In this document: in pieces, positions 28,201 through 56,400 of the stretch
Position numbering within the stretch: position 1 is the first letter of the stretch
How the letters are laid out: the number at the start of each line of letters is the position of its first letter
Assembly (NCBI GenBank): GCA_001724265.1
Contig: MEDY01000033.1
Span: 1-64,000, forward strand
Direction: 5' to 3'
Origin: Rhizaria sp. SCN 62-66
Lineage: Eukaryota
DNA length: 64,000 nucleotides
Made by a program: the position numbers and the translations under genes
Notes under the pieces: generated by a model
Database searches by the model: none
What the model was told of the DNA's origin: nothing
The model's input: the letters and a program-made list of their open reading frames with translations, nothing else

Positions 28201-31200
28201 CTGTGATGGCGCGGTGCGAGAAGGTCTCGGCGCCCAACACCTCCGTAAGCTTGTGTGTCGCGAGAGGGAGCTCGGGAGACGTATACATTGCCTTGGCAAA
28301 AGCAGATGCATGAGTTGTACTTGCGGACTTGCTATCGACAACAGAAGAGCTTGAACTTAGGGCTTTGATGTGAACTGAAGGGAAGTCCGGATAGGTGCCC
28401 CTGAGAGGAGTCATCATCCGACGCAGCAACAGCGCCTGGGCTGCGGGAGGCAGCAGGTTCGCAGTCGAAGCGCACTCGTCATTGCTGCCACCCCAAGCAG
28501 CATATGCGGCCTCGGCAGCCGCTGCAGTAGCAGCAGAGGCAGCGGCGGCTGCAGCCTCTTCGTCTGTAACCTCATTGGTATTGGTGCTAGAGCTTGCTGT
28601 CGTAGGCTGCAATACTTTGGTATCTGAAGACTTAGCGCAACCAATAGAGCCACCAGACTGGCTGGGACGATGAATAGCAGAACCAGTGGCAGCTGCAACA
28701 TCGCTCTCGTTGTTGAAGTCAACAGTGACAACTTCAGGCATCAGCTTCTGCAGTCCGAGCAGCGCTGATTCGGTCACAGTGGGTGCGATATCGGCAGCGC
28801 CAGCACCACTGCCAGGAGCAGTCGCAACGGCCGCCGCGGCGGCCGCGGCTGCGACAGCGGCGGCGGCCGCGGCGGGGTTGGGCGCGGTCTCGACCGTGGG
28901 GACCTGGGCCCAGCCGCCCCGCAGCCATAGTACGGAGCCGGGGCGCAGGTGCGGCGCCAGCGCGGCCGCGGTGGCGACGGGGAGTTCGATGGCGATGACG
29001 CGGAGTGTGTGCGTGTAGAGCAGGACGCGCACCGGCGCCTGCTGCTGCTTCTGCGGGTCTTGGGGTTGCGAAGCACCGTTCTCACTCGCAGACTCATCAG
29101 TGGGGATAGATGCTAGGGAGGAGAAAGAAGAGGAAGAATACAACGCTGGCGGCTGCTGCTCTCCTTCAGGCTCATGCTGCTGTTTAGCGCGGACCTTCTT
29201 GTTATTCGTGCTCGCTTTGCCGCCCTTTTGATTTGTACTCGTATTGCCGCTTGGTGCAAGAGCGGCGTTTGCAGTCTTATTGGGATTCGCAGAGTCAAGA
29301 GCGAGTGCAGGTGTCCAGAGGCTCGAAAGAGCGCTCGCAGACGCAAACGGAACTAAACCACTCATATTGCTGCTGCTGGAATCAACCTTCGTGGTGCTAC
29401 TGTTTGCACGGCCGTGAGCAGATGCTGTGGGACTGAGAGTCCCGTTGCGGTGGGGCATCCAGAGTGCAGTCGGGGGGAACTGCGAGCCGAGAGGCAGCAC
29501 ACCGCACCACGTACCAGAACCCTTCTCGTCACCGACATTCGCAGCAACACCGGAGTGCAAGTGCAACGCGCCCGAGGGCTGCAGCAAGCTATTTGCATTT
29601 TCTGAGGAAGTTGTGAGCGTGTCTAAAGGGGCGAGCGCGGTGATTAGCGCAGGCCGAAGACCGAGGTCGAGACCGGCACCCTCGACTTCGGCGGCGGCAG
29701 CAGCGGCAGCGGCAGCAGCGGCGACAGCAGCAGCGTTGTTGTACGAAGCGCGGCCAGGAGTGCAATGAACAGGAGCGCTCGGCTCCGTTTTGACTGCGTT
29801 GGACGCAACCGATGCATCATCGTCGTCGTGATCATCATCGCCACCACCGTCGTTACTTCCAAAGCCTTCGTCGTTGTCTTCCTCTTCTGTCGCTGCGGCA
29901 GAGCCAGCGGCACTCGCCGAGTCACCAGCCGCGCCCTCGGAGGCGGCGGCGTCTTCGGCCGCCTTCTGCATCTCCGCGAGTTTCGCCTTGGACACGAACC
30001 TGCCGCCTATGCCCACGGCAGCGCCCGCGGCGCCCATGCGCGCGCGCCCGCCGCGGCCTCGGAGGCTGCCACGCGCGAACCGGGCGGGTCCCATACCCGT
30101 CACGATCATCGCGCCCGCGGCGCCCTTGCTGGCGCTGGCCATGGCGCCGCCGCTGCTGGCCCCGGCCGTGGCGCGGTGGGTCGAGACGGGGCGCGCAACG
30201 CGGCCGAACGTCGCTGCCGCCGCCGTGGCCGCGGCCGTGGCAACGCCCGCGGGCGCCGGCGTCGCCCAGAGCACGAGCGCGAGCCCAAAGAAGTCGCCCG
30301 GGCGCGCGAGCTTGCGGCTGAGCAACGGCGCCTCGTGCGGCGGCGTCGCGTGCGCCGGCACGGCTAGCGCGCCGGGGGGCAGGAAGGTCGGGGCGGCGGC
30401 GGACGTGAACAGCACCGCGTCCGCGGCCGTGGCCAAGGCTGCGGCGGCGACCGCGACGGGCGTGCCCGAGGCGGCGTCGCTGTGACTTGCCAGCGGGGTG
30501 AAGGCCTTGAGGCCGGCGGACGAGAGGGCGCCCACGGAGCCCATGCCACCGGCTGTCATTGTTCCTGTAGCCGCTGCGAACAAGGATGACGAGTCGGACG
30601 ACGCGGTTGCGGTTGCCGCGCGGTTCGCAGTGATGTTCTCGAGCGGCTTGAGGCCGTGCGTGTGGATGCTGTAGAGGTCCTCCGCAACGAGACCCAGGAC
30701 AGAGACGCCGGAGCCGAGAACTGCGTTGATGCCGAACTGACCCATACCAACGCCGGTGCGCAACGCTAACGCGGCGGCTGCGGTGTCGCTGTCATCAGCT
30801 TCGCTGCGGTCATCCCTCTTGACAGAGCTAGCCTTCGCGGCAGACTCTAGCTTAGCTTTAACGTCTGCGTGAGCGTTTGCTGCTGCGTGACTGGCGTTGC
30901 TGCCTGAGGGCGGGTTCATGAGGCCGAGTGCGGCCAGAGCGGTGCGTTTGTTGGCGCGTGGCATGGTCTTCCGAGGCACGCGCACACGGGTACCGATGCC
31001 CAGACCGACGCCAATCGCGCCAGAGCTCGCCGTGGGGTTACTGACCACGGCAGAGCTCGCACTGGCGGCAGCCGGAGGGTACGCGTTGCTCGAGGTGTAC
31101 GGGTACAAGTGGCTCTGCGCAGCGGGCGGTGCGGAGTCGGACGCGTAGGCCGGGGACGCAAACGGGGAGCGCGCGGACTGACGGGACCTGACCCAGCCCG

Positions 31201-34084: not shown

Positions 34085-35178
34085 GGCTAGGCAACTCGAG
34101 AAGAGGCCAGTAGACCGAATGAAAGTGTGGTGTGGCACAAAGGCGAGCTGGTTGCTCTGGGGTTGAGGAAGGCGAGGGAATAAAAAGCCACAGTTCAAAT
34201 TTCGCATTAGTTTAAGAAGATATAATCGGGCATCGTAATGGATAAATTAGCAATGTAACTGCTAATAAGAGTCCGAATTAAAATTGAAGAAAGCTCATGG
34301 AGATCTAGCAAGAAGAATGATTGGCACTCAGAAAGGCGCGAATGAGGCCCTTAAATGGAAAACGAAGGATATAACGGCGTCAGTACCGACAAACAGGGCA
34401 TGAAGAGCAAATTAAGGTAGAATTATCAAATTTGTTGTCAATTGTTAAAGTAATATTCCGTATTCATGCTATACTGCTTCATTGGTCATGCTTCAAACAA
34501 ATCATAGTTGGCACCATGCCAGTTCATACACTACGCTTTTCTTCGCTCCCAGTCAAAATCTCAGTCTTGCCATGCGAATCAACCATGTTTGGACAAGTCT
34601 CTGTCATCCCTCTCCAATCACAGTGAAAGGAGTTGTTTTGACTCAAGCCGGCATTGCAAACACACAATGTGGCATTGCAACTACTGTGATCGATGTCCTC
34701 AATCCGCTGTTTGTTGTGAGCGAGGCGGCTCGCTAGTCACGAGTGCCCATCAGAATGTGCCGATATCAAGCACAAATGCGTGATGATCAAAACTTTGCAC
34801 CAGCGGTCATTGGCGCGGTGAATTGAAATGCTGTGTACCGTGTGCGCAGTTGTTTTTAGCCTTTGTGGCATCGGTCCTCGTTCTTTTCAAGTCACCTCAG
34901 CTCTCCACTGGTTCCGTACAGTCGCAGTTTGTGGTATGTGGTCAAATCCCAATCTCCTCAAGAAGCTCGTATCCGAATGCCACATGGCATCATACCATCG
35001 TCAATGTGCATGCTTTCTTGTGTCTTTTATGCTACTCTTCAATTTTCAGCTTTCTTTAAAATTCCAATATCACTATATCGACTGTATACCTGTCAAAACC
35101 ACGTTCTTGTTGCTCCGCCTCACCTGCTTTTCTCACGTATTCCACCATCTCTTTGGCACTCTCACCAGCTCTCCCCCG

Positions 35179-36721
35179 ATGCTTCGCCGCCCGGGCGCGA
35201 CCCTCTCACGTGTGTTTACGAGCCGAGTTCCTTCCATCTTGATCAAGGCGCCTGCCCGCGCTTTCACGAGCTCATCGCAGTCTTTTGAACGCGTTCGCCC
35301 CTCCGATTCAATCCCCGACGTCGTCGAGAAGATGCTTGCAAACGGGCAGAGGCGTGCATATCTTGCTCCCAACGATCTTACTGGTTAGTTTGAGGCGTCA
35401 CATCCCATGTTCAAGGACCACGTACGTTGCTATCTTGTATCAACGACTCTCCTGCTCCGAAAACCTCGATACTCTATATCGAAGCTCTCCGCTTGTGTCT
35501 GTGGTCTTATATTGTTTTTTTGCTCTTTATGATGTCTCATTGTAGATCCTGACCTCTGTCATTGACGACGAGCGCGACTACGACCGCCATGAGGCGATTT
35601 TTCTTGAAGTCGGCGCCGAGACCAAGGCCCTGCACGCCGTCTTCCTCCACAACACGACCCGCGGCGCCGGTGCTGGCGGTGTGCGCGCGATGCATTACCG
35701 CGCGCTCGAGGACTACGTCAAGGACGGTCTGCGTCTTTCGCAGTCGATGTCGCACAAGTGCGCGCTTGCTGGCATTTGGTGGGGCGGCGGCGGCTCGCTC
35801 ATCTCGCTTCCCGACCCACGCAAGGGCTCGTTCGACCGCGCGGCGCTGTTCCGCGAGCACGGCCGCTTCGTCACATCGCTCCAGGGCTGCTTTTTCACCG
35901 GCAAAGACCTCGGTGTGACGGAGGAAGACATGGCGACCGTGCACCAGCAGACTCGCTTTGTGATGAACGTCCCGCCCGCGGTCGGCGGCAGCGGCGATCC
36001 TTCTGGCTTCACCGGCAAGGGCGTCGTCGTCGCGATGGAGGCCGCCGTGACGCACGCCAAGCTCCCCGGCATCCAGGGCCTCTCGCTTGCCGTCATGGGC
36101 GCCGGTAAGGTCGCGCGCTCCGTCGTTGCCGCCGCGCTGGACAAGGGCGTGGAGCGCGTGATTGTTGCCGACCCCGACGCGGCCGCGGTTGCGAGCATGC
36201 AAGCCATCTTCAACGACGGCCGCGTGTTGATCAAGCACGTCGACCCGACCGACATCTCGATCGTGGCCGAAGACGTCGACATCCTCGCGCCCTGCGCCAC
36301 GGGCGGTGTGCTGAACCCGATGACGATCCCGGCTATCAAGGCCAAGTTCATCGTCGGCGGCGCCAACAACCAGCTGCTAGACAAGGTGCGCGACGCAGTG
36401 CTGCTCAAGAACCGCGGGATCACGTTCGTACCCGACTACATCTGCAACCGCATGGGCGTGATGGTCGCCACGGCTGAGACGGCGGGCACGATGATCAACG
36501 ACCCGCTGCTGCTGCGCCACCTGGACAAGAGCTACCCGCGCGGCATCTACGCAATGACGCACATGGTGCTCGACCGCGCAGAGGCCGACAACACCACCAC
36601 GGCGCACGCCGCGCGCGTCGTCGCCGAGGAGTTGTGCCAGCAGCCGCACCTCATCCTGCCCAACCGCGCGAGGAGCATTGCGCAGTCGCTCCGCCAGCAC
36701 GGCTGGGTGTACAATGGCTGA
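35179..36721 (+). CDS. Glu/Leu/Phe/Val dehydrogenase family protein with mitochondrial-type presequence, 472 aa; exons 35179-35421 and 35546-36721; in-frame TAG at 35386-35388
   Basis: Arg/Ser-rich N-terminus without acidic residues (MLRRPGATLSRVFTSRVPS). Motifs HNTTRGAGAGGVR, MSHKCALAGIWWGGG, GSGDPS, GAGKVA, DILAPCATGGVL, GGANNQL and VPDYICNRMG. Stop is TGA. Confidence 0.9.
35422..35545 (+). other. Spliceosomal intron (124 nt, phase 0) in the dehydrogenase gene
   Basis: CAC|GTACGT donor, identical to the donor at 48262. T-rich tract and TTGTAG|ATC acceptor. Phases match only if the upstream TAG is translated. Confidence 0.85.
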
Positions 36722-37102
36722 ACTTAAGTTAAGGCATTTAGCCACTCCTGCAGCCATTCCTGTTTTGACTTCTGGAGCATTCCTTTCTTACCCTTGTACT
36801 CTTTGGTCAGAGTGTGAAACGTGTTATATCTAGTTAATTACTGCTTGTCACTTTGCCTTGTGTGCTTTGTTCCCCTAATAATCGTAATACAAGGTGTCAA
36901 TCAACATTGTTGCGTGGGGGACATAAAGATGCTGTATTTACATGGGTAGTTGAATCTTGAACGCGTAATTGTACACTGAAGTATGGCAAACTAAAATATA
37001 ATTGAAAATGAGTAAAGTTCGAAACAAATACGTACGATTGATGAGATAAGCAAAAAATTGTTGATTTGGGGCACATGTTTGATTTTTGATTCTAGGGTCA
37101 TT

Positions 37103-40100
37103 TCATTCGTTGTTCTCCAACGTGGCAGTAGTATGACTGGTCTTGCTCTTGTCTTTGCGGACACGAATCGTCTTATTGACGATCACAATACGGCGCGTCT
37201 TCTCGGGCTTGCTATCCCCAGCAACACCTGCAGCAGCATGTGTCATCGCATCAATCGCCGCACCAGCAGCAGCTGCGGCACTGGCGTCAGTGCCACTCGT
37301 GACCGTGACAGAGGGACGGCGGGTGACTGTCTTCACTGTGGTCGTGCGACGAATTACAGAGACAGTGCCACGCTTGCGGGCTGCGTCGCCGTTATTCGTG
37401 TCACTAGTGTTAGAGCTGGCAGTCGCAGTACTATTCGCATTGCTGTTCGACGATGCTTGGGCAGGGAAAGCAGCCAGTGCAGCGACAACAGCAGCAGCAG
37501 GGGAAACAAGCTTGACGGGGCTCTTGACGCGACCAGTGTTGCTATCGGAGTTGTTGTTGTTGTTTGAAGCAGTCGCCTGCTGGTTCTTCGCGACAGGGCT
37601 CTTGACGGTGGTGTTCGGGTTGCTGCTATTGTTACGCTTGCTTGTGGGGCTCTTCGCAGGGCTCGCCTTCGTGTTCGCGCCCGCGCTAGTTTGAGAATGA
37701 GCGTTCGCGTTGCCACCGAACATAGCAGCGCGAGCAGAAACATTACTACCGGCGACAGCAGCAGCAGGGCGAAAAGCAGGAGCGGCAACAGCTCTCTTCG
37801 TATTCCCACCATCAGCAGCAACAGCAGCAGAGTGGGCCGCGTTAGTCGTGCTGTTGCTAGTCTTGTTACCGTGAGAAACTGTTCCGCCAAACATGCTGGC
37901 AATAGCCGCAGCCTTCGTGCCCACCGCGTTGCCACCACTCGCCGTCACAGCAACTTGATCGTGAGAGACAGCAGCAGTGGTCGAGCTACTGCTATTGTTG
38001 CTAATCGTGTTCGTTGCAGGAGCGTTGAACCCACCCACATAGACGGCAGGAATGGATGAGAATGTCGCAGCAAGCGCGCTCACCCGACTGCTTGCGGAGC
38101 GCTGCTTGCTCGCACTCTTGGGGACAGGTGAGCTCGGCTGCGCTGCAGTGGTGTTATCATCATTCGAGTGATCCTGCAAAACAGCCTTCTTCGCGGGTGT
38201 CTCAGAAGCAGCGTTCTTGAGCTTTTGCGGGGACTTTGCGCCCGTGGTGTCGTTCGCAGGTTTAGAGCTCGCATCTGTGTTGTTGTTATTGGCAGCATTG
38301 TGGAGCCAACGCTTATGAGCAGCACCCTCACCCTTACCAACAGCAGTGACGTTAGCAGCAGCAGAGTCTCTTTGCTTGTTGTTATTCTGGCCCTTGTTGT
38401 CAGCAGCCGCAGAAGACTCCGCCTTCGCAGCAGCGGCGACAACTGCACCAGCCCTCTTGGGAGGACTGCTCTTTGCTGCATCGCGCTGGTTCGCAGTGCT
38501 CACGTCACCGCTCGTGTTCTTTGTGCTGCTCGTGCTATTGTTGTGACTCGTCTTGCGCAGAGCAGCTGCACGGAAATCACTCACATCTGCAGTGGCAACA
38601 ACACGAGCAGCCTCGTCCTTCTTCTGAGCGTTCGCTTGATGTGCGTTCTTGCTGTTGCTATCACTCTGAGCCTGTGGCCCAGTCACCGAGGAACCTTTGT
38701 TCTTGCCGTTGGGTGTCTGCCTTTGCTTCTGCTGCTCGTTTTTGTCGTTATTGTTGTTGTTACTCTTGCCACTGACAGTGACACTGTGAGAGCTCACGGG
38801 TGCAGCGATGTTCGCCTTTGTGGTCGAGCCGGCAACGTTGCTGTCACGAGACTTGCCCTTCTTAGGAGTTGCAGATGCAACAGCATTAACACCTAAAGCA
38901 GGAGCATGATCGCCGGCATTCACGTTCGCGCCACTGATGCCACCATTCGCAGCCTTAGCATTGCCTCTGCCACCCTTGCCCTTGGCCGGTGTCGTAAACA
39001 GCGTCCGCTTCGCCCGATCGCCGCTGGCATGCTCATCCTCAGCAGTAGCGTCACCACCGGCGGCAGCCGCAGCGGCAGCAGCGCGCGCGGCCCCGCGCTG
39101 GGTCTTCTTCGCCTTGAGCTGGTTGTTCGCATACTCGCGCGCCCACGTCGACGCCAAACGCGCCGACTCAGCGGTAATGTCACCAAAAGCGCCCGCAAAC
39201 ATCGCCAGAAAGTCACCCCAGAGAGTGAAAATAAGCTCCCAAGCCCCCTTAGCGTCTGGCTCAACAAGCAACACGGCCAAATCTGCGCCGTTCTTGCTCG
39301 CCTTCTCAAGCCGCGACTTGACCTCCGTGACTCGAGCGGTGATATAGTCCAAAGTGCTATCAACAAGAGCGAGTGCATCAGTCTCAGCCGTCGCGATAGC
39401 GACCCACTCGGCCGGAGGAGATACGCTCGCTGACTCAGCCTTGTCACTGTTGGTCTTACTGTTCTTCGCTGCGTCAGCAAGAATCGCGGCCATCGCTACC
39501 TGGCGCGCACGGAGGCCCTTGACATAGGTCGTGAACTTATTGCACTGCCCTCCCAACGCAGAGATGTCGCTCGTCAAGCTCGCCTGCTCAATGCGGGCCG
39601 CGGTGGCAAACGCGGCGGCCGAGGGCGCCAGCATCGAGCAGAGGTCGCTGTGTTTGCGCATGAGAATGCGGGTGAGGAAGTGGGCGAGATTGGCCTGTGG
39701 CGGCAGCGGGATGCGCGGGCCGGTCAGGTCGAGGCTCACGGCACCGGTCTCGGGGTTCGTTACGATGACAACAGCGCTCGCTGCCACATCCGTCGTTGCG
39801 GCAGCGTTGCCACTGCTCTCAGCTGTGCTCTCGTTGGCGCCGTCATTCTTGTTAGAGATGGCGTTGTTGCGCTTCGCAGAGTCGATCTTGACGGCGCTCA
39901 GCTTGCTCAAATCCTTCAGCTTGACCGCATACACACCAGCCTTGCCCTCTGACATCGCGTTGAGCGTGTTGCCCGCAGTCAGCGCGGTTGCCAAGAGCGT
40001 GCGCGTGTGCGCCGAGTCCTTAATGGTGCTCTGTGCCTTAAGGACGATGTCGAGCGAAGTGTCGATCGAGCGCACCCACGCAGGGAACTCGCGCTGAAAG

Positions 40101-43100
40101 ACACTGGCCTGCACTGCGCTCTCGAATGCGCTGATGGAAGTGCTGTTCGTCGTTGCACCCTTGCTCTTGTCGTTGCCGCTCGAGTAGCGGCTGCTGGCAA
40201 TAGCCTTGTACGCGTCATCGGTCTCGGCCACGGCTAACACCCACGACTCGGCGCTGGCAAGCGTCACGCGCTGCCCCTTAAACCCGCGCACGAGCTTCAC
40301 CTCCTCCGCCGTGGGCACCAGGTTTGACATGATGCCGAGCTGATCGGCGGTCAGGCCGGGCGCGGCGCTGAGGGCGGCGTGGATCACCCCACTCTCGGGC
40401 TGGCGAAGCTTGGCGAGCGCGATGTTGATGGCCTGGGAGCGGCGGCCGTCGAGCAGGGTGATGGTGCCTGCCTCGACAGCAGTGGTGCCAACGGCGGCAT
40501 CGGCAGCAGCGCCTGTGCCGCTGGTGCTGTTGGCGGCGTTGGTGAGTGAACGGGCGGCTGCTTGGGGGAACAACGCCGCCAAATCCGCAATGTCGGTCCT
40601 CGAAAGCACGCCAAACACGTCTTCACCGTCCTCATCGTCGTTGTTGCTCGCACCGCCCTTGCCCTTACCTTTGCCCTTGCTCTTGCCGTTGTTCTTTGAG
40701 AGGGTCGCAAGTGCAGTAGCCGGCGTTGCCAGTCCAGCTGCAACCGCAGCCGCAGTGACGTCAGCGCACACCTCTTGCCACAGAGTGTTCTTGATGTTTC
40801 CAAGGGGGATCGACGCCCAGTGGACGATCTTGAGCTTAATATCCTTCAGTGAGGCAAACATGACGCGGTACTTCGTCTGATCCAAGGATGCAGCGCCCTT
40901 CTTCCCCTTGCGCGGGCTGCCGCTCTTACTGATCTCGCCGTCGTCGCCGCCGGCACCCTCTGGGAGCAGCAAGTGTGCAAACAGAGCCCCAGCCTCCGGC
41001 ATCGCGCTGATGCCGAGCGACTGCAGCAGTGCCGCGAGCTCCTCCTTCCTCTTCTTCTCCGCAGCAGCGCGCCGCGCGGCCACCGCCGCATTCCCACTGC
41101 TACCGGCGTTCGCGCTACTCGCGCTTGGGCTGGCGTCGTCGCCGAAGAGATCGAAGTCGAGGGGCGGCGGCGGAACACCGCTGGGGTCTGTGTCGAACAT
41201 GTCGTCAAACAGACCGTCAGGTGGCGGCGGGGGTGCGCCAGGGCCGCTCAGAGCAGTGCCGCTTGAACTAGCTTTGGTGACTGTGGGCAACGTCGGGAGA
41301 GCAGTGATCGGTGAGAACAGCGTTTCGTCATCAAAGACGTCGAAAAACAGCTCAGCAGGCGGGGGCGGCACGTCAGAATTTTTGTAACTACTAGTGCTCA
41401 CAGCATTCGCATTGACAATGGCTCCATTCGCAACGTCAGCAGCATTAACAACAGCAATTGTCGGCGCAGCGACAGGCTTGTTGAATCCCTCCAGCGCCGC
41501 CATCGCCACCGGCACCGACAGGACCCCGACATCGTTATCCACCGTGGTAATGCTATTATTGCTCAGCTGCGCGCGCCTGAGCCGCGCCACGCCGGGGGGC
41601 GGCGTGCCGGCGTAGGTGGCGACCCGGCCCATGAGTGCCGTCAGCGAGTCGACGGGGGCCGAGAGCGAGGCCAGGCGCGCAGCGCGGGCGGCGATACTGC
41701 TGCTGCCGAGCCACGCCGCCGCGCCACCGGGCGTCGCGCCGCCGCCGGGCTGGAGCGAGAGGGAGGAGGCGAGGCCGCCGTGGTTCGAGAACAGGTACGA
41801 GAAGTTGTGGGGGTGCGCGGTGCTGCCGTTGGGCGAGGCAAGCATGAACGCGCCGCTGCTGTTATGGCCCCCGGCGCCGGGGCTGCCCACCAGTGCCACC
41901 GCGCCTCTGCCGCGGTCGCCGCCGCCGGCGCCGGCGGGGAGCAGCGGGAGCGCGGTCTGGTAGAACTGCTTCTGCGCCTCGAGCGCAATGGCCAGGATGC
42001 GGTCGCTGAAGCCACCGGGCCCCGTGAGGCGCGCGAGCGACTGTGACAGCCCCAGCACGATGCCGTCGTAGAGCGTGCAGTGGTGGTGCAGCGCCGCGTT
42101 GGCCGCCGTCAGCTGTGCCTGCTGCTGCTGCGTGGCGGGCGCGTCTTCGGAGGCGAGAGAGGCGCTGGACTCGGCGATCGCGTTGATCTCCTCCACGGCG
42201 TCGCAGATCCCGTCGTAGTGCTGCTCGGCGCGCGCGAGCTCGGCCTCGAAGCTCTCGCACTCACACTCCCACTCCAGAGAGACCTCCTCGAGCGCGTCGC
42301 GCAGGTCCTTCTGGAAGATAACGCGCGCGCGGTGCGCGATGTGCTGCTGCAGGGCCACAAAGTCGGCGCGCAGACCGGCCGAGAGCGACGTGGTGGGATT
42401 GCTCGTAGCGAAGACCCGGGGCGCGCTGGGGTTACTCGCGGGCGCTCTCTTGTTAACGGGGCTGCTCACACGGGGACTGTCGGCACTAATGACGGCGCTA
42501 TTTTTAGCAAAGCGACGAAGGCGCGGCGAGCCCGACGCTGCGTCGCCGACGCTGTTACGATTGTCAGCGGTCACTCTGCCTCTGTTGTGGCTGTTAGGAG
42601 TCGTATTGCTACTGTTGTTGGTACTTGTGTTTGTGTTATTGTTGCGGGGCGAGAAGGGAGAAGAAAACGCAAGCGCAGTCGCAAGCCTGCGTGGCGGAGA
42701 CAGCAAAACACCCTGACTTTGATGCAGTTGCTGCTTGATGGCGCTGTTCGAAGCACTATTGTTGTCTTGGTGACCGCGAGTGGGCGACTCGTGCAGAGTC
42801 GCAAGCGCGCCTCCCCGAGGCGAGAGCAACAGAGCTGCCTCACCACTGTGGCCCGCACCAGTGTTGGCATTGCCTCTCTTGCTCTCGCTGTCGTCACTGT
42901 TGCTGGTGCTGTTACTGTAATTCTGTTTGCGGTGATTTGCGCGGACGGGCGTAGCGAGCGGCGAGCCCGCAGCGCTGCTACTAACACTACTAGCAGCCGA
43001 GTCGTACTTGTAGCTCGCGCGACTGTTCCCGCTGCCATAGTGCTCACGCTACCACTGCTCCTGATACACGCTCGCCGGTACAGCACCAGCGCCACCAACA

Positions 43101-44005
43101 GCGGCGCCCACACCGGCGCTGCCCGCGCCACGAACGCCGCCGCTCGCGCCCGTGACCGCAAGCGCGGACGCCGACGTGTTGTGCAGCGAGCACGCCTGCG
43201 TGGCCATGTCCATGAGGCTCTCTGCAAAGTCGAGCACGTCGTCGTGCAGCGTTTCGAGCACGGCGCGCGCAGACTGCAGCTGCGCGCCCAGGCTCTCGAT
43301 GTGCGCCGCGTCGATCTCAACCCGCTCAAAGCTCAAGCTGCTGGCGTCGGTATCGGGGTCGGCGGCGGCATCAGCGCTAGAAGTGGTTACGTGGGGCGTG
43401 CGCGTGGGAGAGAGAATGACGAGGGGAGAGAGTAAGCGTCCTGTGCTGTTGGCACCCAGGCCACTGTTCGAAAGAGTCCTTGAAGCGGGGGATAGAAGCA
43501 GGGGTGAGGCCAAATGCACCGCGTTAGCACCGACACCCGCACTGTTCTTCGTACTCGTGATGGTGTTGCCCAAACTCAGTGTACTGCTTATAGATTCTTC
43601 GCTTACGTCGCGGGGCTTCGACTGCTGCTCAGGAGAAGAGAAAAATGGAAACGAGAACGGTAGCTTAAACAGTGGAGAGTGCACGTGTTGTTGTTGCTGT
43701 TGCTTCTGTGTGTCATCAGCAGTTGCAGCATCACTACTGCCGTTGTTGCGCTTGTTGTTCGCCTTCGTGGGGGTGTTGCTTGAGCTCGTGCTGTTGCCGC
43801 TAGGTCCGGTGTCGTTATGAGCAGTCTTGGTGGGTGTTGGCGAAGACGAAAAGAAATACATTTTCTTGAGAAACGTGTCAAACACGCTTGGGGAGTGTGG
43901 AGGCAGAGCTTTCAGTGCATGTTGCTGTACAACAACGGTCTTCGCGCTTGTGTTGGCCTTGGCGACAGTGGAGGCCTTGGCGAGCTTCTTCTTGCGCGGG
44001 GGCAT
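37103..44005 (-). CDS. Formin (FH1-FH2), 2300 aa when the in-frame TAG at 43049-43051 is read as sense
   Basis: FH2 motifs LKIVHWASIP..IKNTLW, TLLDGRRSQAINIALAKL, LVPTAEEVKLV, LLATALTAGNTLN and LKDLSKLSAVK, preceded by short poly-Pro tracts. Track ORFs 43049..44005 and 37103..42829 share a frame and are separated only by one TAG plus 73 open codons. Stop is TGA. Confidence 0.88.
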
Positions 44006-44530
44006 GATTTAGTGGAGAGCGAGAGTCGCGCAGCCAGAAGGTGAAAATGATTATGCTGCAAGCAAGCGGGTCGAGAATATGTGTGCCGCAAACCAGAGTA
44101 GAGCGGGGATGGTGCCGAGAGCGACGAGGCGAAGGGGGGGCGTGCCGCTCGAAAGTTTGAAAACTGGTATTGAAAAATTGTTACGGAAGGAAAGATAATT
44201 TTGAGAAATAAATAAGGTAAAACATATCAAACGCACAATTCCATCACAATAACAAATAAAATTGTGAATCCACGAAGATTTCAAGCAATGCAACGTTGTC
44301 AAATCCAGTGGCATATGCACCAACAACGAGCCAATGTCCAACGGACATCAACTTCTACGGAGGATATGTCCGATAAATAGAGGGCCATGACGCAAACCAT
44401 GATGCTTCACGTGCGAAGATGTGGATTTCTGTACTTTCGCAAAATCATATACTCTTGAACTGCGACTGGCCTAGTGAATCTCGCCCTACAACCTCCTCAT
44501 ACCTTTACGCGAAAAGTCAAGGATGAGCAC

Positions 44531-46256: not shown

Positions 46257-48932
46257 ATGGATCCTCCGATCTACCCTCGGATCTGGATCCCCACTACGTC
46301 CGAAACCACGGCGATCGTGGACGGGGAGGACAAGGTCTACACGGCCTACAACATTCATATCGAAGTCGCCCCCGGTCAGATGCGTTACGCCGTGCGCCGC
46401 TTCCACGAATTTGTCGAGTTTGATAAGGTCTGGTCTGCGCTCTACACCACTCTCAAGGACCAGTTCGAGCTGCCCAGCAAGGTCATGCTGTTCAAGACCA
46501 CCAAGGCCATGGAGTCCCGTCGCAGCGGCCTCGAGAGCTACATCGTGGGCCTCTCCCGCGTGCGTTCCATGGAGACCTTCGTCTGCCAGTTTCTCGGTCT
46601 CACCGAGGACGAGCTTTACATCCGCCCCAAGAAGCCCGCCGGCCCCGCCGGAAGCACCCCCGGCGGCCGCGCGGGCCACCCAACCCTAACCCCCGCCGTG
46701 AGCATCGATCTGGTCAACCAGCGCGGCATGGAGGGCCTCAGCGGCAAGATCGACGGCCTGCAGCGCGAGCTTGTTGCGCAGTCCGGCGCGGCGCCGTTGC
46801 CCAAGGGCGCGCTGGCGAGCTACGAGGAGAACGGCGAGACGTACATCGTCGGCGCCTCAGCCTCTGGCGGCACCACGGGTGGCAACCTCGACGACCTGCG
46901 CAGTGCGGGCGCCAAGGAGTCGATGAAGGAGGCCCCGCGCGGCAACACGCTTGAGGCCAGCGAGAAGGCGCGCCGCGACAAGGAGGAGTTCCTGAAGAAG
47001 AACGCAGGCGTGATCGCGTCGCTGATGCCCGGCCGCCAGCTCAACGTAGTGTACAACATCGGTAAAGCGGGCGAGATGTACGACCGCTCGCTGGGCAAGG
47101 TGCAGCTGTCACTGTGGTACCGCCCCGGTGTGATGGGCAACACGCGTAAGCCGATGCGCGACGCGATCATCACCGACGACACTGGCGGCGGCGTCATCGT
47201 CATCACCGTTCACTGCGGCATGGACCTGCCGTCCAACGACGGCATCAGCAATCCTTACGTCAAGACGTACCTTACGCCCGACCCGGACAAGGTGTCGAAG
47301 CAGAAGACGAGCGCCAAGTCGCGCACGGTGAACCCCACGTGGGAGGAGGCGCTCGAGTACCGCGATATCTACCCCGACGAGCTGCGGCTCAAGTGCCTCA
47401 CCATCTCCGTCTGGGACAAGAAGCTCAACGGCAAGAACATGTGCATGGGCGAGGTCGTGTTCGACTCGCTGGCCACCTTGCCGCGCACCGACACCGAGCG
47501 CCTGCACCGCTGGTTTGACCTCAAGCCGTGGACCAACTTCGCCAACACTGGCACGTCGGCCGCGACAGGCATCTCGACCTACGCCAAGCGCAACTCCGTG
47601 ACCGACAACGCGCCCCCCGCGGCGACATATTCCCCGTCCAGCTCACCCATGGCCTCCCCGGTTAGTCCCGGTGGCCCCAGCGGTGGCGCGTCCCCCGCGC
47701 TGCCCCGCGGCCCGCCCCCGCGGCTGCCGTCGGGCCCGCCGCCGCGCGTTAACAGCAGCCACGGCGCCGGGTCTGCGCCCACGTCGCCGCTTGCGGCCAC
47801 GTCGAGCTACGCCAGCAACGGGTCCAGCGGCAGCGCCGGCGCGGTCGAAGGCCGTCCGCACGTCGCCGCCGCCCCCACTGCTGCTTCCGCGAGTAGCTCC
47901 AGCGGCGGCGGCTTCTTCTCCGGGCTCTTTGGCCGCAGCGGCAGCGCCGGGGCCGCCAGCCCGCCTGCCACGCCTGCGTCGCCCCCGCAGTCCCCGATCC
48001 CGCCCCTTGCGCCCACCACGAGCGCCAGCGCCAGCGCGACGAACAAGATCAACGTTGCCAGCGCCGCCCCCGCGCCCCGCCCCTGGGCAGTGGCCGCGGC
48101 CAACAACAACAAGCCGCCAGTGACCGTGACCGCAAGCTCGAGCGCGAGCTCCAGTAGCAGCGTGAAGCCCGGCGCCGGCCCCACGCCCGCGGCGGCGGCG
48201 ATTGCGGCCGCTGGCGCAAACGCGCGTCCTTCGTGGGCCCGTCCCCTGCCCTCCACGCCCGGTACGTAAACCACAACTACACGCATGTTTGGAGGCATAT
48301 GTTTTATTATTCTCATAATTCACGTTGAAATTATTGAAATAATGGAAGAATCACGATTTTTAATTTTTACTTTCGTTTCCTGATATATCTTACTGATATT
48401 GTCACAACTCTGTTTGTTTTGTTCCTTCGCCCTTATTATCTCAGGAGCTTCCAGCCCGCCCGCCCCGCCCGTTAAGGCCGGCGCTGCCTCCGGCGCCGCG
48501 TCTCCCCCCGCGTTCGGGCGCGCCCCGTCTACGCCTGCCGTGAGTAACCCGCCCCCCGCGTCCGCCGCCGCGTCCGCCGCATCGCCCCGCGCCCCCCCGC
48601 GGCCCTCGCTCATCGGCGTCAACACGCGCCCGCTGCCCTCCCCGACAGGCGCCGCCTCGCCGCCGCCGCCGCCCGCGTCCGCCGCCGTCGCCGCCGCGCC
48701 CGCCGCGGTCAAGGCCCCACCGCCGCCACCGGTGTCGGTGCGGCCCTCAGTGCCGACGGCGCTGGTGGTGGAGACGTACGTGCCCACGGCCGACGAGGCC
48801 GCGGCCAGCGTTCTGGCGCTGACCAAGGGCACCAAGGTCGAGGTTATCGACAGCACCACGGGTGCGTGGTGGTATGGCAAGATCGGCGCCAAGGAAGGGT
48901 ACTTCCCCGCCGAGTTCGTGAAGATGATGTAA
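46257..48932 (+). CDS. PX domain - C2 domain - proline-rich - SH3 protein, ~830 aa; exons 46257-48261 and 48445-48932; an extra upstream exon is possible
   Basis: PX: YTAYNIHI..VRRFHEFVEF..LPSK..ESRRSGLESYI. C2: NPYVKTYLTPDPDKVSKQKT..NPTWEE..ISVWD..MGEV. SH3: LALTKGTKVEVID..WWYGKIGAKEGYFPAEFV. A CTAAC..TTTAG acceptor-like site ending at 46240 suggests an upstream intron. Stop is TAA. Confidence 0.88.
48262..48444 (+). other. Spliceosomal intron (183 nt, phase 1)
   Basis: G|GTACGT...CTCAG|GA, very AT-rich. Joins ORFs 46257..48269 and 48399..48932 in frame. Confidence 0.92.
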
Positions 48933-49953: not shown

Positions 49954-50765
49954 TTAGAGCTTGCACTGCGGACTGCCCTTGTCGTCCGTGCCCGCGGCGG
50001 GCGCACTGCCCGCGCCCTTCGGCGTCACCGGCGCAGAGCCAGCGCTCGAGCTGCCAGCGGAGGGCGCCTCACCCATGGGGATGGGCGTGGTTTGGGGCTT
50101 CTGGTGCTCATCGTAGTAGAACGCCATGTGAACGCTGCGGCGTGAGAAGCCGCACTGCTCGTAGAAGGCAACGTTCTTCTCGTTGCAGTCCAGGATAATC
50201 TTGTAGCAGCCATACGCGCGGGCCTCCTCGACCAGGCGCTCGATGATGCTGCGAGAGGGAGCGAAAACAAAGTGCAACGAGATGAATAATGAGTAAATGA
50301 TAGTAGTGAGAAGTAGCCGTTACAGTACATGCATGCACTTGACACGTAAGATAGAGGCATTTCAAAACAGACTTGAAGTATAGTAAACAAGATAGATACA
50401 AAGGTGTGCGGATATTTGCCGTACATCTTGCCGAGGTTGAGGCCCCGGTAGTTCGAGTCGACGACAACGTCCTCGATGTGGGCCACGAGGCCGCAGTTGT
50501 GGATGAACTTGGCCTCGTAAAACAAGCTCGCAGTGCAGGCAATGCGCCCCTTGGCTTCGTCCTCGCCGACCAGAGTAACTGAGGCGCCCGCACGCGAGCG
50601 CACGTCAAGGCAGCGCTCGAACTGCTCGCGCGAGACGGCGCCGAGGTCGGTGAGCTGGGAGAGGATGGCGGGGAAGCCCTTGTCGTAGTCGCCGCGCGCG
50701 AGGGGGCGGAACGTGATCTTGACGTCGGACTTAGGACGCGAAAAGTCAGCGGGAGCAGATGACAT
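49954..50765 (-). CDS. GNA1: Glucosamine-6-phosphate N-acetyltransferase (GNAT), 211 aa; exons 50765-50425 and 50248-49954
   Basis: RPLARGDYDKGF..LSQLT, EAKFIHNCGLVAHIEDVVVDSNYRGLNLGK, GCYKIILDCNEKNVAFYEQCGF. Stop is TAA. Confidence 0.95.
50249..50424 (-). other. Spliceosomal intron (176 nt, phase 2) in GNA1
   Basis: AT|GTACGG...CGCAG|C gives LGK-I-IIERL in frame. Confidence 0.92.
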
Positions 50766-51072: not shown

Positions 51073-51298
51073 GTCGACATGATCTTCGTCGAACTGTGGT
51101 AACGGCCTCGAAGTTGAACAGATCAACACTGTACTTCGTAGTGTTTTCAGTATGAAGATTTACAAAAGAGAAATAACTGACCAGCTTTAAATTATCTTGA
51201 TTTTCTATTGATAGGTTCACCAACGGAGACTTCACGCCACAGCACTCACTTAAACCTAGTCTACTGCTCGTCTGGCTGAGCAGCTCTCGCGGTCGCTC

Positions 51299-53454
51299 AT
51301 GCTCTCCCAGCGCCGTCCGTTCGCGTCCACGCAGCCTATGCCTGCCGCGGCCGTTGCCACCGACGATGACGCCTTATGGGGCGGCCCGCGCCGCCCGCAC
51401 GACTTTGTTGTCCTCTCCCCCGAGGCCGTGCGCCGCGCCATTGGCCTGGTCCAACTGAACAAGCTCCAGCGCTACTTCCAGATCGACTCCGCCAACGATG
51501 ACGGCATCAGCCTCAGCTGCGACGAGTTTGTTGCCGCCCTGGGCTCCGTTCTTATGTCCGCCGCTGCGCGCACGTCGACCAAGTGCCTGCGTATGGTGTT
51601 CATGCAGATCGACGCCGACGCCAACGGGTCCGTCGACTGGGCCGAGATCACCTCGTTCATGGTCGTCGACCACCGGGGCCTGGCACCGGAGCCCAGCGTG
51701 TACCTCAAGCGGCCCGTCGGCCCCACGCCCCCCGTGCCGCACAGTACGAGCAAGGCGTTTCCCGCCGCTTCGGAGTCGTCCCGCTCGTCCGCCTCGTCTG
51801 GCAGCAATGCCAGTAGCAACAAGAGCGGCAGTGGGAGTACTTCTGCCCGCTCGCGCTCGCGCTCATCGACTGCTTCTGCCGTCTACAGCGGCGATTCACA
51901 CGACGGCACCTTTGACGCAGACGCGGACGCTGACGCTGACGGCGACCATAACGACGACGACAGCAACAACAACGGCGACGGGGACGGCGACGGTGGCGGC
52001 GGCGGCGGCGGCGGCGGTGAAAGCTCTGAACGCTCAGGCTCGAGCTTAGCCGGCCGCTCCTGGTGGCGCAACCGCGGCTCCAGCTCCAGCTCCAGCTCTG
52101 GCTCCGGCTCTGGGACGCCCCCCACCGGCTCCGGCTCCGGCGGCGTCGGCATTGGCAGCGCGGTTGGCCCCCGGTCGCGCCCGCGCCGACTGCGCCACGC
52201 CCCCTCCGCGACCGCGCGCGTCAAGATGGTGACCCCGCCGGTCAACGCCACAATCAACACTCTGTCATCGCAGCACCACGTCGGCATGATTGACGCGCTG
52301 CTGACGCTGCCATCGGGACACCTGATCACGGGTGGCCGCGACGGCACCGTCCGAGTCTGGCGCCCGCCCGTGACCCCCGAGGCCGCGGCCGCGCCGCCGA
52401 CCCACATCCTCCACGTCGCGTCCGAGTCGCTGCGGTCCTCCATGCCGCTGTCGCTGCTCTCGGGCGGGCCCGCGGGCGCGCTGTCCGCCGCCCTGACCGG
52501 CGACGGCGGCTCAGGCACCGCCGCTCTCGGCGCCGGCGCCGGCGCGGGCGGCGCGGGCGCCGGGGCCGCGGCAGCGGGGCGGCGGCGGCCTGACTCGCTC
52601 GCCCTCCGCGACCCGTCCACCACGTTTCCCTCGCTGTCCACCTCTCTTTCTAGCAGCAGCAGCGGCGGCAGCGCGAACGCGTTCGGCGGCGTAGGGCGCA
52701 AGGGGTTCTACTCGCGCAGCGGCGTGGGCGCGCCGCAGAGCTACCTCGGCGGCGTTGGCCCCCGCAGTGGTGGCGTCAAGGCCGAGGCGCCCGCGCCCGG
52801 GTACCTTCCGGGCGGGCTCTCCGCCAGCGCGCTCAGCGCCGGGCTAGGCCGCAGTCTCGGCGGCAACGGCAGCGGGACTGGTACCGGCGCCGACGCCACG
52901 CCGCCGCGCGTGACGCACGTGCCCGTCGCGGGTGGCGCAGGGCACATTCTGATTACTGCGATGGCAACGCTGCCGCTGAGCAACAATCTTGTTGTGTGCT
53001 CGAGCGACTGCGTGGTCACGTTCGTCGACATCGCCACGATGAAGATCACTTCGCGCATCCGCGACTTCGGCTCCGTGCACGTGTTCACCGAGCCCATCAC
53101 CGCCGCGCTTGGCCTCGCGCTCTACGGACAGGACCTGCTGCTGCTCGGCGACGACTGCGGCCGCATCCACCTGCTCCGGTTCCACGACAAGAACTGGTTT
53201 ATCCACGACGCCACGCTCACCATCCAGGCCCGCGAGGCGGCCGCCGCGGCGCCGGCGACGTTCGAGGCCGCCGTGGCTGCGGCGTCGGCGGCCACGGGCG
53301 CCGGCGGGCTTGACGATCTCTCTGGCAACAACGGCTCCGGCGGCGGGAACAACGACGACGACGGCGGCCGGTACGATCCGTACTACAGCAACAGCGGCGG
53401 CGGCAGCGGCGGCTCGGCTATCGCGCGCTCCGGCGGCAGCGGCGGCAGCGCTGC

Positions 53455-53485
<31 letters not shown>

Positions 53486-56400
53486 GGCGGTGGCAGCATT
53501 GGCGCGGGCCCTCAGGTCACCGCTATCCCCGGCTCGATCGACTCCGCGGATGCGCCGCACGCGCCGCTGCCGCCGTCTGTGGCCGCGGTGCTGGCCGCGA
53601 GCGCCGCGATGCCGCCCGGGCCGCCGCAATGGCACGGCGTCAGCCGCTACCGCGTGCGGCTGCACTTCCCGCGCGTGCGCACGGACATGACCGCGGTCTC
53701 CACGGCCACGGCGACGGCCACTGCCAGCACGGGCGGCCCCGGCGCCGCGGCGGGCTCTGGCACGGGCGCGGGCGCGGGCGCTGGCAAGGTTGCGTCGGTC
53801 GCCACCGTGACCGACGGCTCGTTCAAGTACTTGGAGACGCAGTCCACCACCATCACGGCCACGAACAACAGCCTCAACACGAGTCTCAACGGCAGCACCG
53901 GCGCGACGAGCCGCTTCGCGCCGTTCAACTCGCGGCAGGACGAGGCGCTGTTCCGCGCCATCAGCGACCACCCGTGCGCTATCACCGACATCAAGTATTC
54001 GCCGCAGCTCGACGTCTTCGTGTCGGCTAGCGCGGACGGCACTGTGAAGCAGTTCGACATCACGCGCATTCCGTCCGTGCGTGCGGGCCCAGGCGCGTGC
54101 GTCGGCGGGGCCGGGTTCGGCGCCGTCGGCACCGCCACCTCCGCGGCGTCGGCCTCGGCCGCTGCCGCCGCTGCCGCTGCCGCCGCCGCGGTCGCCGCCG
54201 CCGCTGCCGAGACCGCTGCCGTTGCGGGGACGCTTGTCGCCAGCGCCAACGCCGCCGCCGCCGCCGCTGCTGCGAACACCGCGGCCGCCGTGGCCGCCGC
54301 GGCCGCCGCTGCCGGTGGCGGCGCCGGCGCGGGCGGGGACGACGACGGCTCCGACCCGTCGCGGCCCGTGCTGCGCGAGCCCTGCTGCGTGCGGCGCGTG
54401 TTCCTGGGTCACACGCGCGCGGTGCACACCGTGGCGCTGTCGCCGAGCATGAAAATCGCGGTCAGCGCCGGCCTGGACCGGTCCGTGTGCGTGTGGGACC
54501 TGTACAACCTGCAGGTCATCACCACGCTCACGGGCTTTCAGGCCCCGCTGGAGCTCGTGGCCGTCGACGAGCTCGCCCGCATCATCATCGCCGTCGCCGC
54601 AGACAAGGCTGTGCGCGTGTACGACATCGCGATCGGCTACGTGTGCGTGCACTCGAAGCCCGCGGCGGTCAAGTGCTTCCCGCAGGACTGCTTCTCGGCC
54701 GCCGCGTACGACAGCTATAACCGGCGCCTCGTGGCCGCGCACTCGCGCATCTGCGCCATGGAGATCGTGGTGCTTGCGACGCGGCCGCCCAAGTCGCACC
54801 GCAGTCCCGTGATCGCGGTGTGCTATAACAAACAGTTCAACCAGCTCATCACGGCCGACGAGGCCTCCGGTGTGTCGATCTGGGACATCGAGACCGGCAA
54901 GGTACTCTCACGCTTCGAGGCCAGTGTGCCGCTCGCAGCGATGTGCCTTGACTCGAACGAGCGCAGGCTGCTAATGGGCGGGCAGGACGGTTCGCTGCAG
55001 ATGTACAACTTCAGTAACGGGCAGAAGCTGACCGAGTTTACGACGGAGATCCTTGTCCATGAGGAGGAGGACTACCACGCGTCTCTCGCCTCCAGCAATA
55101 ACAACAGTAGCATGAACAACAACAGCTCAAATTCTAGTTCGACTTCTAATGCGGGTGTGCCGGCTCCCAGTAGTGGTGCGGCGGAGACTGTTAGCAGCAG
55201 CGGTGCATCGGCGACGCGGTCCAATGCGCTGATGATGCTGCAACAGCAGCAGGCCCTGCAAGACACTCTTGCTGCCAGTTCAAGTGCTAATTCGAACTCT
55301 AGCACTGCGAACTCCTCCCGCAACCCCGCTACTTTGACTGCAACCAACGCTGTAGCTCCTAGCTCAGGCTCGAACGCACACGCGGCTGCCGGCGCGACGG
55401 GGAACAACAGCAACAGTCGACGCCGCCGCCCGACGACCTCGCGCGACATCAGCGCCGTGGTGTACATCGAGTCGCCCGCACACTCGAGCACGCGCTACAA
55501 GCTGGCCATCACAACTGGCTGGGACCGGCGCGTGCACGCTTGGGCCGACCTCGGCGCCGGCGACGCGCGCCAGAGCCACGTCAAGTCTTTCCCACCGCTT
55601 GCGCGCCGCGACGTCGTGGGGCACCGAGACGACATCATCTGCCTCACGGCGACGGCCACGCCCGGCATCATCGCCACGGGCGGCGCGGACGGGCTCACGC
55701 TGCTGTGGCGCACTGACGGCGGTCATCCGCTCGCGCGCCTGCGGCCGTGGCCGCGGTTTGAGTTGCTGGTGCCGCCGCCGCTGCGGCCCGTCACGGCACT
55801 CCAGGTCGTGCCGGAGCTGGGTGTGCTCATCTCAGCCTCGGCGGACGGCTTCCTGCGCTTTTGGACGCTCAAGCGCGGCCGCCTGTTGATGGAGAAGTTC
55901 ACCCACCACGCGCACGCGCACGCCGTCACGCACTTGGGCGGCAACGGCGCGCCGACGCTGCGCACGTTTGACGGCGTGCTGTACCACGAGCCCGTGCCCG
56001 TAACCGCGATGAAGGTCTCCGTCGGCGTCGGGCTGCCGCTCGTTGCCGCGGCCCTGAAGCAGGTCGACTCGACGATCGCGGGCGCGCTCGCGGTGGCGGA
56101 CTCGAGCAGCGGCAGTCGCCGCCGGCGCCGGCAGCACGAGCGCCAGCGCCGCCAGCTGCAGGGGCTGAGCACTGACGCCACGAACGAGAGCGAGAGCAGG
56201 GAGTTCGGCGCCGGCTTCGTCACCGACAGCGATAACGATGAGGAGCACAGTGACAGCGGCGAGCAGCGCAGTGGGCACAAGCGTAGCATCACCGCGACTG
56301 AGCACAGTCTCACTGCGGACGCTTCCCCGCGCGACAGCAGCAACAGTACCACCGCTGCGCATAGCGGTAACAACGGCGATGGCGGTCTCCGTCCTCCACT

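Follow-up and report, generated by a model that had tools for sequence, protein, structure and literature searches.

The window, by which we mean the whole 64-kb stretch of DNA analyzed, is eukaryotic in character, with GC-rich coding sequence, AT-rich introns and intergenic regions, and long genes consisting mostly of intron-poor open reading frames (ORFs). Nine genes lie in it, one of which is incomplete. Several ORFs of great length, enriched in Ser, Ala, Thr and Asn, lie in 1002-34246 and 51260-64000, none with a Pfam match at E <= 1e-4; gene A comprises two exons of 1912 and 1622 codons, and the further ORFs extend over 3353, 976 and 2987 codons. An ORF with WD40 repeats exceeds 4246 codons and continues past the window end, and by eye the region at 44.1-46.2 kb (GC 0.46) holds no convincing ORF. 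Besides the dehydrogenase intron described below, three further putative introns were read by eye, with the donors GTATGT, GTACGT and GTACGG:

6652-6761, minus strand: AT-rich GT-AG intron of gene A
48262-48444, plus strand: AT-rich GT-AG intron of a PX-C2 gene, whose last exon ends with TAA at 48930-48932
about 50255-50425, minus strand: AT-rich GT-AG intron of a small GNAT-like gene

The gene of primary interest encodes an ELFV-type dehydrogenase whose reading frame contains a TAG. Its features, with the evidence for each in brackets, are as follows:

35179-35421, plus strand: exon 1 (translation; cDNA contig; alignment to the homologue P0003)
35386-35388, plus strand: in-frame TAG in exon 1 (DNA contigs of runs X3 and X4; cDNA contig of run X5; alignment)
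35407-35409, plus strand: in-frame ATG (Met77), a possible alternative start (sequence; PDB alignment ranges; Met in P0003 too)
35422-35545, plus strand: spliceosomal intron of 124 nt, GTACGT...TAG, phase 0, GC 0.41 (cDNA joint in X5)
35546-36721, plus strand: exon 2, 391 codons, with TGA at 36719-36721 (Pfam PF02812 and PF00208)

From the ATG at 35179 the frame runs for 69 codons (MLRRPG...APNDLTG) to the TAG, continues through FEASHPMFKDH and reaches the GTACGT donor at 35422; the acceptor AG occupies 35544-35545, and phase is maintained into exon 2 (35546-36718). A first-pass annotation of this DNA had placed an in-frame TAG after NDLTG and before FEASHPMFKDH, and the codon lies exactly there; the other coordinates of that annotation are likewise correct. 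The first 36 residues include 6 basic and 0 acidic ones and are rich in hydroxyl side chains, a composition suggestive of a presequence. At the other end of the gene we observed a tandem stop (TGA ACT TAA, 36719-36727), with an in-frame TAA two codons past the TGA.

We took advantage of four public sequencing runs aligned to positions 34900-44100 of the window, among which X3 and X4 provide DNA contigs and X5 provides cDNA. The TAG at 35386 is present in X3 record 1 (34900-35705, 0 differences) and in X4 record 9 (34900-35796, 1 difference, at 35164). X3 and X4 come from studies separate from the window assembly, so that three independent assemblies agree on this codon. In RNA, the TAG is kept in X5 record 17, which covers 35167-35421 with 0 differences and starts 12 nt upstream of the ATG at 35179, the first ATG within that cDNA contig. 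Past 35167 this record has 6 letters that do not match the genome, and a stretch this short could be a trans-spliced leader, adaptor or noise. In a separate cDNA contig of X5, 35421 is joined to 35546 across a GT..AG intron (1 contig, with 25 letters on its shorter arm), and among the pieces listed X5 has none over the intron at 35422-35545. Both RNA observations that the annotation had called for, the junction and the retained TAG, are thus in hand, and the phase-0 pairing of GTACGT at 35422 with an acceptor ending at 35545, which it had proposed, corresponds to the joint seen in cDNA. It had also considered a donor GTTAGT at 35384; this donor is indeed in phase 1, and its sole phase-matching acceptor is the AAG at 35607-35609. 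Transcripts using a donor at or before 35384 would have undone the claim, but in none of the four runs did a joint from 35384 appear and the only joint near the TAG is 35421 to 35546. Taken together, the DNA contigs, the cDNA contig and this joint exclude both sequencing error and removal of the TAG by splicing. The TAG at 35386-35388 is confirmed as genuine, in frame and retained in spliced RNA.

Homologues span the TAG. At E <= 0.001 a search with exon 2 scored 400 proteins; the list covers the 120 best. Among these, the best match after the window's own fragment is P0003, a protein of 491 residues that is 65% identical; the other matches listed are 39-48% identical and mostly 430-460 residues long, and the named ones are bacterial. 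The extra length of P0003 is N-terminal, where it reads PSDSIPDVVTKMLENGQPRAFMVFNDVTGKFEASHPM against PSDSIPDVVEKMLANGQRRAYLAPNDLTG-TAG-FEASHPM in the window. The TAG column corresponds, with no gap, to Lys70 of P0003 (codon AAG), and 117 homologues align across the column without a gap. Their residues at this position are R 24, G 17, E 17, A 15, K 8, Q 8, T 7 and S 6, and the K of the close relative comes from a pair of sequences in a single 90% cluster. With such variation, the alignment does not reveal the encoded residue. The earlier guess of Q or K at this position is therefore matched by the K of the only close relative, although the column at large favors neither (K 8, Q 8 of 117). Other expectations held throughout: the codons on both sides of the TAG behave as coding, with gap-free homologues and pN below pS on each side; the ASHP motif is real, with the Ser of SHP present in 111 of 117 homologues; and similarity to FEASHPMFKD extends to P0003, which reads NDVTG-K-FEASHPM. 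Upstream of the TAG, 21 of 31 residues are identical to P0003, with pN 0.19 and pS 0.68, and the part downstream of it has pN 0.21 and pS 0.54. These values are similar on the two sides, which argues that purifying selection has acted on the piece before the TAG just as on the remainder of the gene.

The predicted structure of P0003 is consistent with this. Modeled by AlphaFold from 82 homologues, P0003 reaches a mean pLDDT of 90.1, and residues 41-90, with block pLDDT values of 94-97, form a helix (45-54), two strands (59-65 and 70-73) and a second helix (76-87), whereas residues 1-40 are of low confidence. In this model the second hairpin strand starts at the TAG column. The confident fold of residues 41-90 suggests that the part before the TAG is a piece of folded protein and not a leader. 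P0122, a member of the 90% cluster of P0003, carries a 33-residue insert exactly at the site of the window intron, starting with VR and ending with Q. By its sequence the insert looks like an unspliced 99-nt phase-0 intron, as would be translated from GTACGT...CAG. The contig that encodes P0003 (L001) is without such an insert and may be derived from cDNA.

By homology, the dehydrogenase belongs to the Leu/Phe/Trp dehydrogenase branch of the ELFV superfamily. Exon 2 passes the cut-offs of both Pfam families (PF02812, 44.7 bits against 25.3; PF00208, 64.5 bits against 23.4), phmmer gives an E-value of 1.4e-53 to 6acf, and Foldseek comparison with Leu and Phe dehydrogenase structures yields TM-scores of 0.77-0.91 when normalized to the target. 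An assignment to the tryptophan dehydrogenase ScyB (NF035922) was rejected, as exon 2 scores 203.5 bits and P0003 161 bits against an equivalog cut-off of 600. While 6acf, 1leh and 1c1d share the fold and both Pfam domains with the window protein, the subfamily to which it belongs (about 430-460 residues) has an extra N-terminal subdomain of about 45 residues, which is absent from the solved LeuDH and PheDH chains. The PDB match begins at residue 87 of P0003, which corresponds to residue 7 of the 8hpe chain, and Met77, encoded by the ATG at 35407, lies 18 nt past the TAG and 4 residues before the residue-1 position of solved LeuDH chains. The subfamily with this subdomain is uncharacterized. 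In the window protein, the motif WWGGGGS (near 35783-35803; P0003 residues 158-164) aligns a Gly to Lys80 of 1leh. P0003, the other eukaryotic member, likewise has Gly in this column, which is Lys in at least 90% of 83 aligned sequences. We take Lys80, in the GGGK motif of 1leh, to be the catalytic base. If this role is correct, the window protein and P0003 are probably not conventional amino-acid dehydrogenases, and they may be pseudoenzymes or have a changed chemistry.

A second in-frame TAG is found in the neighboring gene, which encodes a formin-like protein:

37103-44005, minus strand: formin-like gene, ATG at 44005-44003, 319 codons, TAG, 1981 codons, TGA at 37103-37105
43049-43051, minus strand: in-frame TAG (...VYQEQW-TAG-REHYGSG...) (coding score; DNA contigs)

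An FH2 domain (Pfam, 82.6 bits) lies in the part downstream of the TAG. We identified this site by ranking stops flanked by 40 stop-free codons on each side with a codon-usage score trained on long ORFs. Out of 349 stops ranked (TGA 217, TAG 87, TAA 45), the TAG at 43049-43051 scored best. Two other high-scoring stops, at 2728-2730 and 30483-30485 on the plus strand, were rejected, being antisense to long minus-strand ORFs. With the formin gene excluded from training, each 150-nt block between 44005 and 41755 scored above zero in frame 0 and below zero in the other two. GC content across this stretch is 0.49-0.80, as compared to 0.32-0.41 in three recognized introns, and an intron covering the TAG is not apparent: there is no AT-rich stretch, and none of the in-frame GT..AG spans over it uses any of nine donor hexamers tested (0 spans; 267 such spans exist with other donors). 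The next in-frame ATG lies 401 codons downstream, so rescue by an internal start, conceivable for the dehydrogenase, fails for the formin.

In DNA, the formin TAG is present with 0 differences in X3 record 6 (40088-43557) and X4 record 15 (42128-43178). As to RNA, X5 and X8 show some depth in the bin at 42882-43188, with no listed piece spanning 43049. Both the dehydrogenase and the formin gene are transcribed. We looked for homologues that extend across the formin TAG. A word-based search recovered nothing but P0243, the upstream ORF of the window itself. Of 4 matches in a full HMMER search, none extends over the TAG: two (P0243 and P0244) come from the window, P0245 corresponds to query residues 346-418 and P0246 is weak. 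Both TAGs share the context G-TAG-NNT-GAG (GGT TAG TTT GAG at 35383-35397 on the plus strand; TGG TAG CGT GAG at 43054-43040 on the minus strand), which may be due to chance.

In-frame TAGs are thus found in 2 of the 9 window genes, one anchored by homologues and the other by coding signal only. This second TAG, like the ATG at 35407, lay beyond the first-pass annotation, and its presence in a neighboring gene turns an oddity of a single gene into a likely property of the organism. Over roughly 18,600 codons, the coding frames of the window are free of any interruption by TGA, TAA or frameshift. The eight complete genes terminate with TAA (n = 6) or TGA (n = 2) and none with TAG, an absence that is only weakly significant in so small a sample. 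Three gene ends of the relative that encodes P0003 are TGA, TGA and TAA, again without TAG (0/3), and the approximately 7 kb of sequence from this relative contain no in-frame TAG. Sequence 3' of the terminators has a GC content of 0.34-0.41 in 7 of 8 genes, the GNAT gene being at 0.51. The 64-kb window contains no tRNA gene detectable by ARAGORN, no Rfam match and no eRF1 gene.

Among 14 listed runs, all or part of the region at 35100-43300 occurs in 12, which belong to 7 studies; the runs are labeled as metagenomes of bioreactors, wastewater, activated sludge and microbial fuel cells. The organism itself, a eukaryote with a GC-rich genome, is uncultured, and metagenomes of bioreactors, wastewater and activated sludge are its only known sources. 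A scan of metagenome contigs with P0003 recovered two loci of the relative (L001 and L002) and 7 distant matches (L003-L009) that are probably bacterial. Among genome contigs, a search for a mis-binned copy returned only one bacterial homologue, with 38% identity (L010). Synteny is partly conserved, as a formin orthologue lies convergent downstream of the dehydrogenase in the relative (L001, 1809-3197, minus strand) as in the window. The upstream neighbors differ: L002 has a dynamin gene, the window a giant ORF that matches no Pfam family. The window is devoid of a marker gene, and we relied on the L002 dynamin for phylogenetic placement. Its best named matches are from chlorarachniophytes (49-50%) and oomycetes (46-48%), and in a FastTree phylogeny of 46 sequences chosen from 120 listed it grouped with chlorarachniophytes with SH-like support of 1.0. 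This makes a rhizarian affinity possible, as a lead drawn from one gene, of a relative, in a thinly sampled part of the tree.

We consider it probable that UAG specifies an amino acid in this organism, with TAA and TGA as the terminators. The grounds are that 2 of 9 genes are interrupted by TAG and by nothing else, that both are transcribed and that no gene ends with TAG; moreover, a selected folded domain and a presequence would be useless if translation stopped at the TAG. Ribosomes starting at AUG 35179 of the dehydrogenase mRNA would pass through UAG 35386 and cross the 35421/35546 junction, yielding a precursor of 473 residues made of a presequence, the conserved N-terminal subdomain and the LeuDH-like core. 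Likewise, translation of the formin mRNA would proceed from AUG 44005 through UAG 43051-43049 into the FH2-bearing part. Decoding would call for either a dedicated tRNA with a CUA anticodon or strong near-cognate suppression, and recognition of UAG by eRF1 would presumably be weakened. For the residue inserted, the sole hint, a weak one, is the Lys of the relative; Lys itself seems doubtful, and it is a meaning of UAG that, to our knowledge, has been reported for no nuclear code. Whether the change extends to the entire genome, with UAG converted from stop to sense in a GC-rich genome, UAA and UGA kept as stops and about one sense UAG for every 9,000 codons, we regard as an evenly balanced question. 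Use this sparse (two TAGs over roughly 18,600 codons) would be in keeping with a reassignment at an early or ambiguous stage. That both stops are TAG is weak evidence for reassignment, since 68% of random single-base nonsense changes at this codon usage would produce TAG anyway; the identity of the two stops therefore discriminates little.

That same proportion suits an explanation under the standard code, in which both TAGs are fixed nonsense mutations in a near-clonal population and the frames remain open because the mutations are recent. The dehydrogenase, if made at all, would then be a short form starting at Met77, devoid of presequence and subdomain, and the formin would be truncated or start internally. 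Several observations agree with this: relative to P0003, the change from AAG to TAG is a single transversion; the ATG at 35407 could start a LeuDH-like core of canonical length; the equivalent of the catalytic Lys is already lost, which hints at relaxed or altered function; and the population is near-invariant (across 9.2 kb, X3 and X4 each depart from the window at one position), as it would be after a recent fixation. Yet two of nine genes in 64 kb would have to be broken without a single frameshift, TGA or TAA interruption elsewhere in the coding sequence, and both broken genes are still transcribed. As AUG 35179 is the first in the cDNA, the dehydrogenase mRNA would present a 69-codon upstream ORF, after which ribosomes would presumably need to reinitiate 18 nt later, at the ATG at 35407. 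The formin offers no ATG for 401 codons, and the lack of TAG terminators here (0/8) and in the relative (0/3) also speaks against this explanation. On balance we judge fixed nonsense mutations to be unlikely, if still the main rival and a serious one.

The standard code could also hold if UAG were read through at particular sites, whether in a programmed or a leaky manner, with short and long products from each gene and a minor long dehydrogenase carrying the presequence. The shared G-TAG-NNT-GAG context would agree with such site specificity, and near-cognate tRNAs in yeast insert Gln, Tyr or Lys at UAG. However, folding of the 60 and 120 nt after each TAG revealed no RNA structure that would promote readthrough (z-scores 0.0 to +1.07; control mean -0.09, sd 1.2), and neither context is a motif of the UAG-CAR-YYA type. 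Known programmed readthrough lengthens C-termini, whereas here the site would interrupt a folded domain in one case and the first 14% of a 2300-residue protein in the other, and we find this account quite improbable. The least credible proposal is that RNA editing, a minor allele or alternative splicing alters or removes the TAG ahead of translation, or that it is a sequencing artefact. As contigs drop rare variants, edited transcripts in the minority or a rare allele could have escaped notice; the cDNA contig nonetheless retains the TAG with 0 differences, the sole nearby joint is 35421 to 35546, the window, X3 and X4 assemblies agree, and the alignment is gap-free at the TAG column. We give this proposal next to no weight.

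UAG as a sense codon has precedents that resemble the present case to different degrees. According to the passages of PMC5304391 that deal with it, the rhizarian exLh uses UAG for Leu and retains UAA and UGA as stops, with 384 in-frame UAGs in 71 genes and terminators divided into 56 UAA and 15 UGA (PMC5304391). As in exLh, so described, UAG alone occurs in frame in the window and TAA is the commonest stop (TAA 6, TGA 2), and a rhizarian affinity of the window organism is possible via the dynamin of its relative only. In contrast to the exLh of those passages, in-frame UAG is far rarer (2 sites in 9 genes versus 384 in 71), the window genome is GC-rich, and the nearest homologue has Lys at the TAG column, with Leu not indicated. 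So low a frequency, two TAGs over some 18,600 codons, counts against reading UAG as sense. From the same source, Iotanema spirale translates UAG as Gln with UAA as main stop (PMC5304391), and phyllopharyngean ciliates, as outlined in the relevant part of PMC11687900, read it as Leu or Gln with a preference for UAA as stop (PMC11687900). In these lineages, as portrayed there, UAG and UAA no longer share one meaning and UAA stays the main terminator, similar to what we propose, but they are lineages other than that of the window organism. Finally, Condylostoma, Parduczia and Blastocrithidia are listed in PMC5304391 as having ambiguous or context-dependent stop/sense codes (PMC5304391). By that account they share with the window a stop codon with sense meaning inside coding sequence, and differ from it in that the same codon also terminates translation, while TAG closes 0 of 8 genes here. 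Our full-text literature search listed no title or abstract on this organism or on a variant code in a wastewater eukaryote.

In practice, standard-code gene callers split or truncate the genes of this organism: in database entries the dehydrogenase appears as a fragment of 343 residues and the formin as two pieces of 318 and 1823 residues. Since the organism is widespread in treatment-plant metagenomes, the data for a full test are already public, and a contig of 263 kb exists among them. If true, UAG translation in this organism would represent a further independent UAG-only nuclear reassignment, of a known kind described in few lineages so far. It would be unusual in taking place in a GC-rich genome, with very sparse sense use and TAG terminators already absent, and would help to decide between the codon-capture and the ambiguous-intermediate routes by which stop codons are captured.
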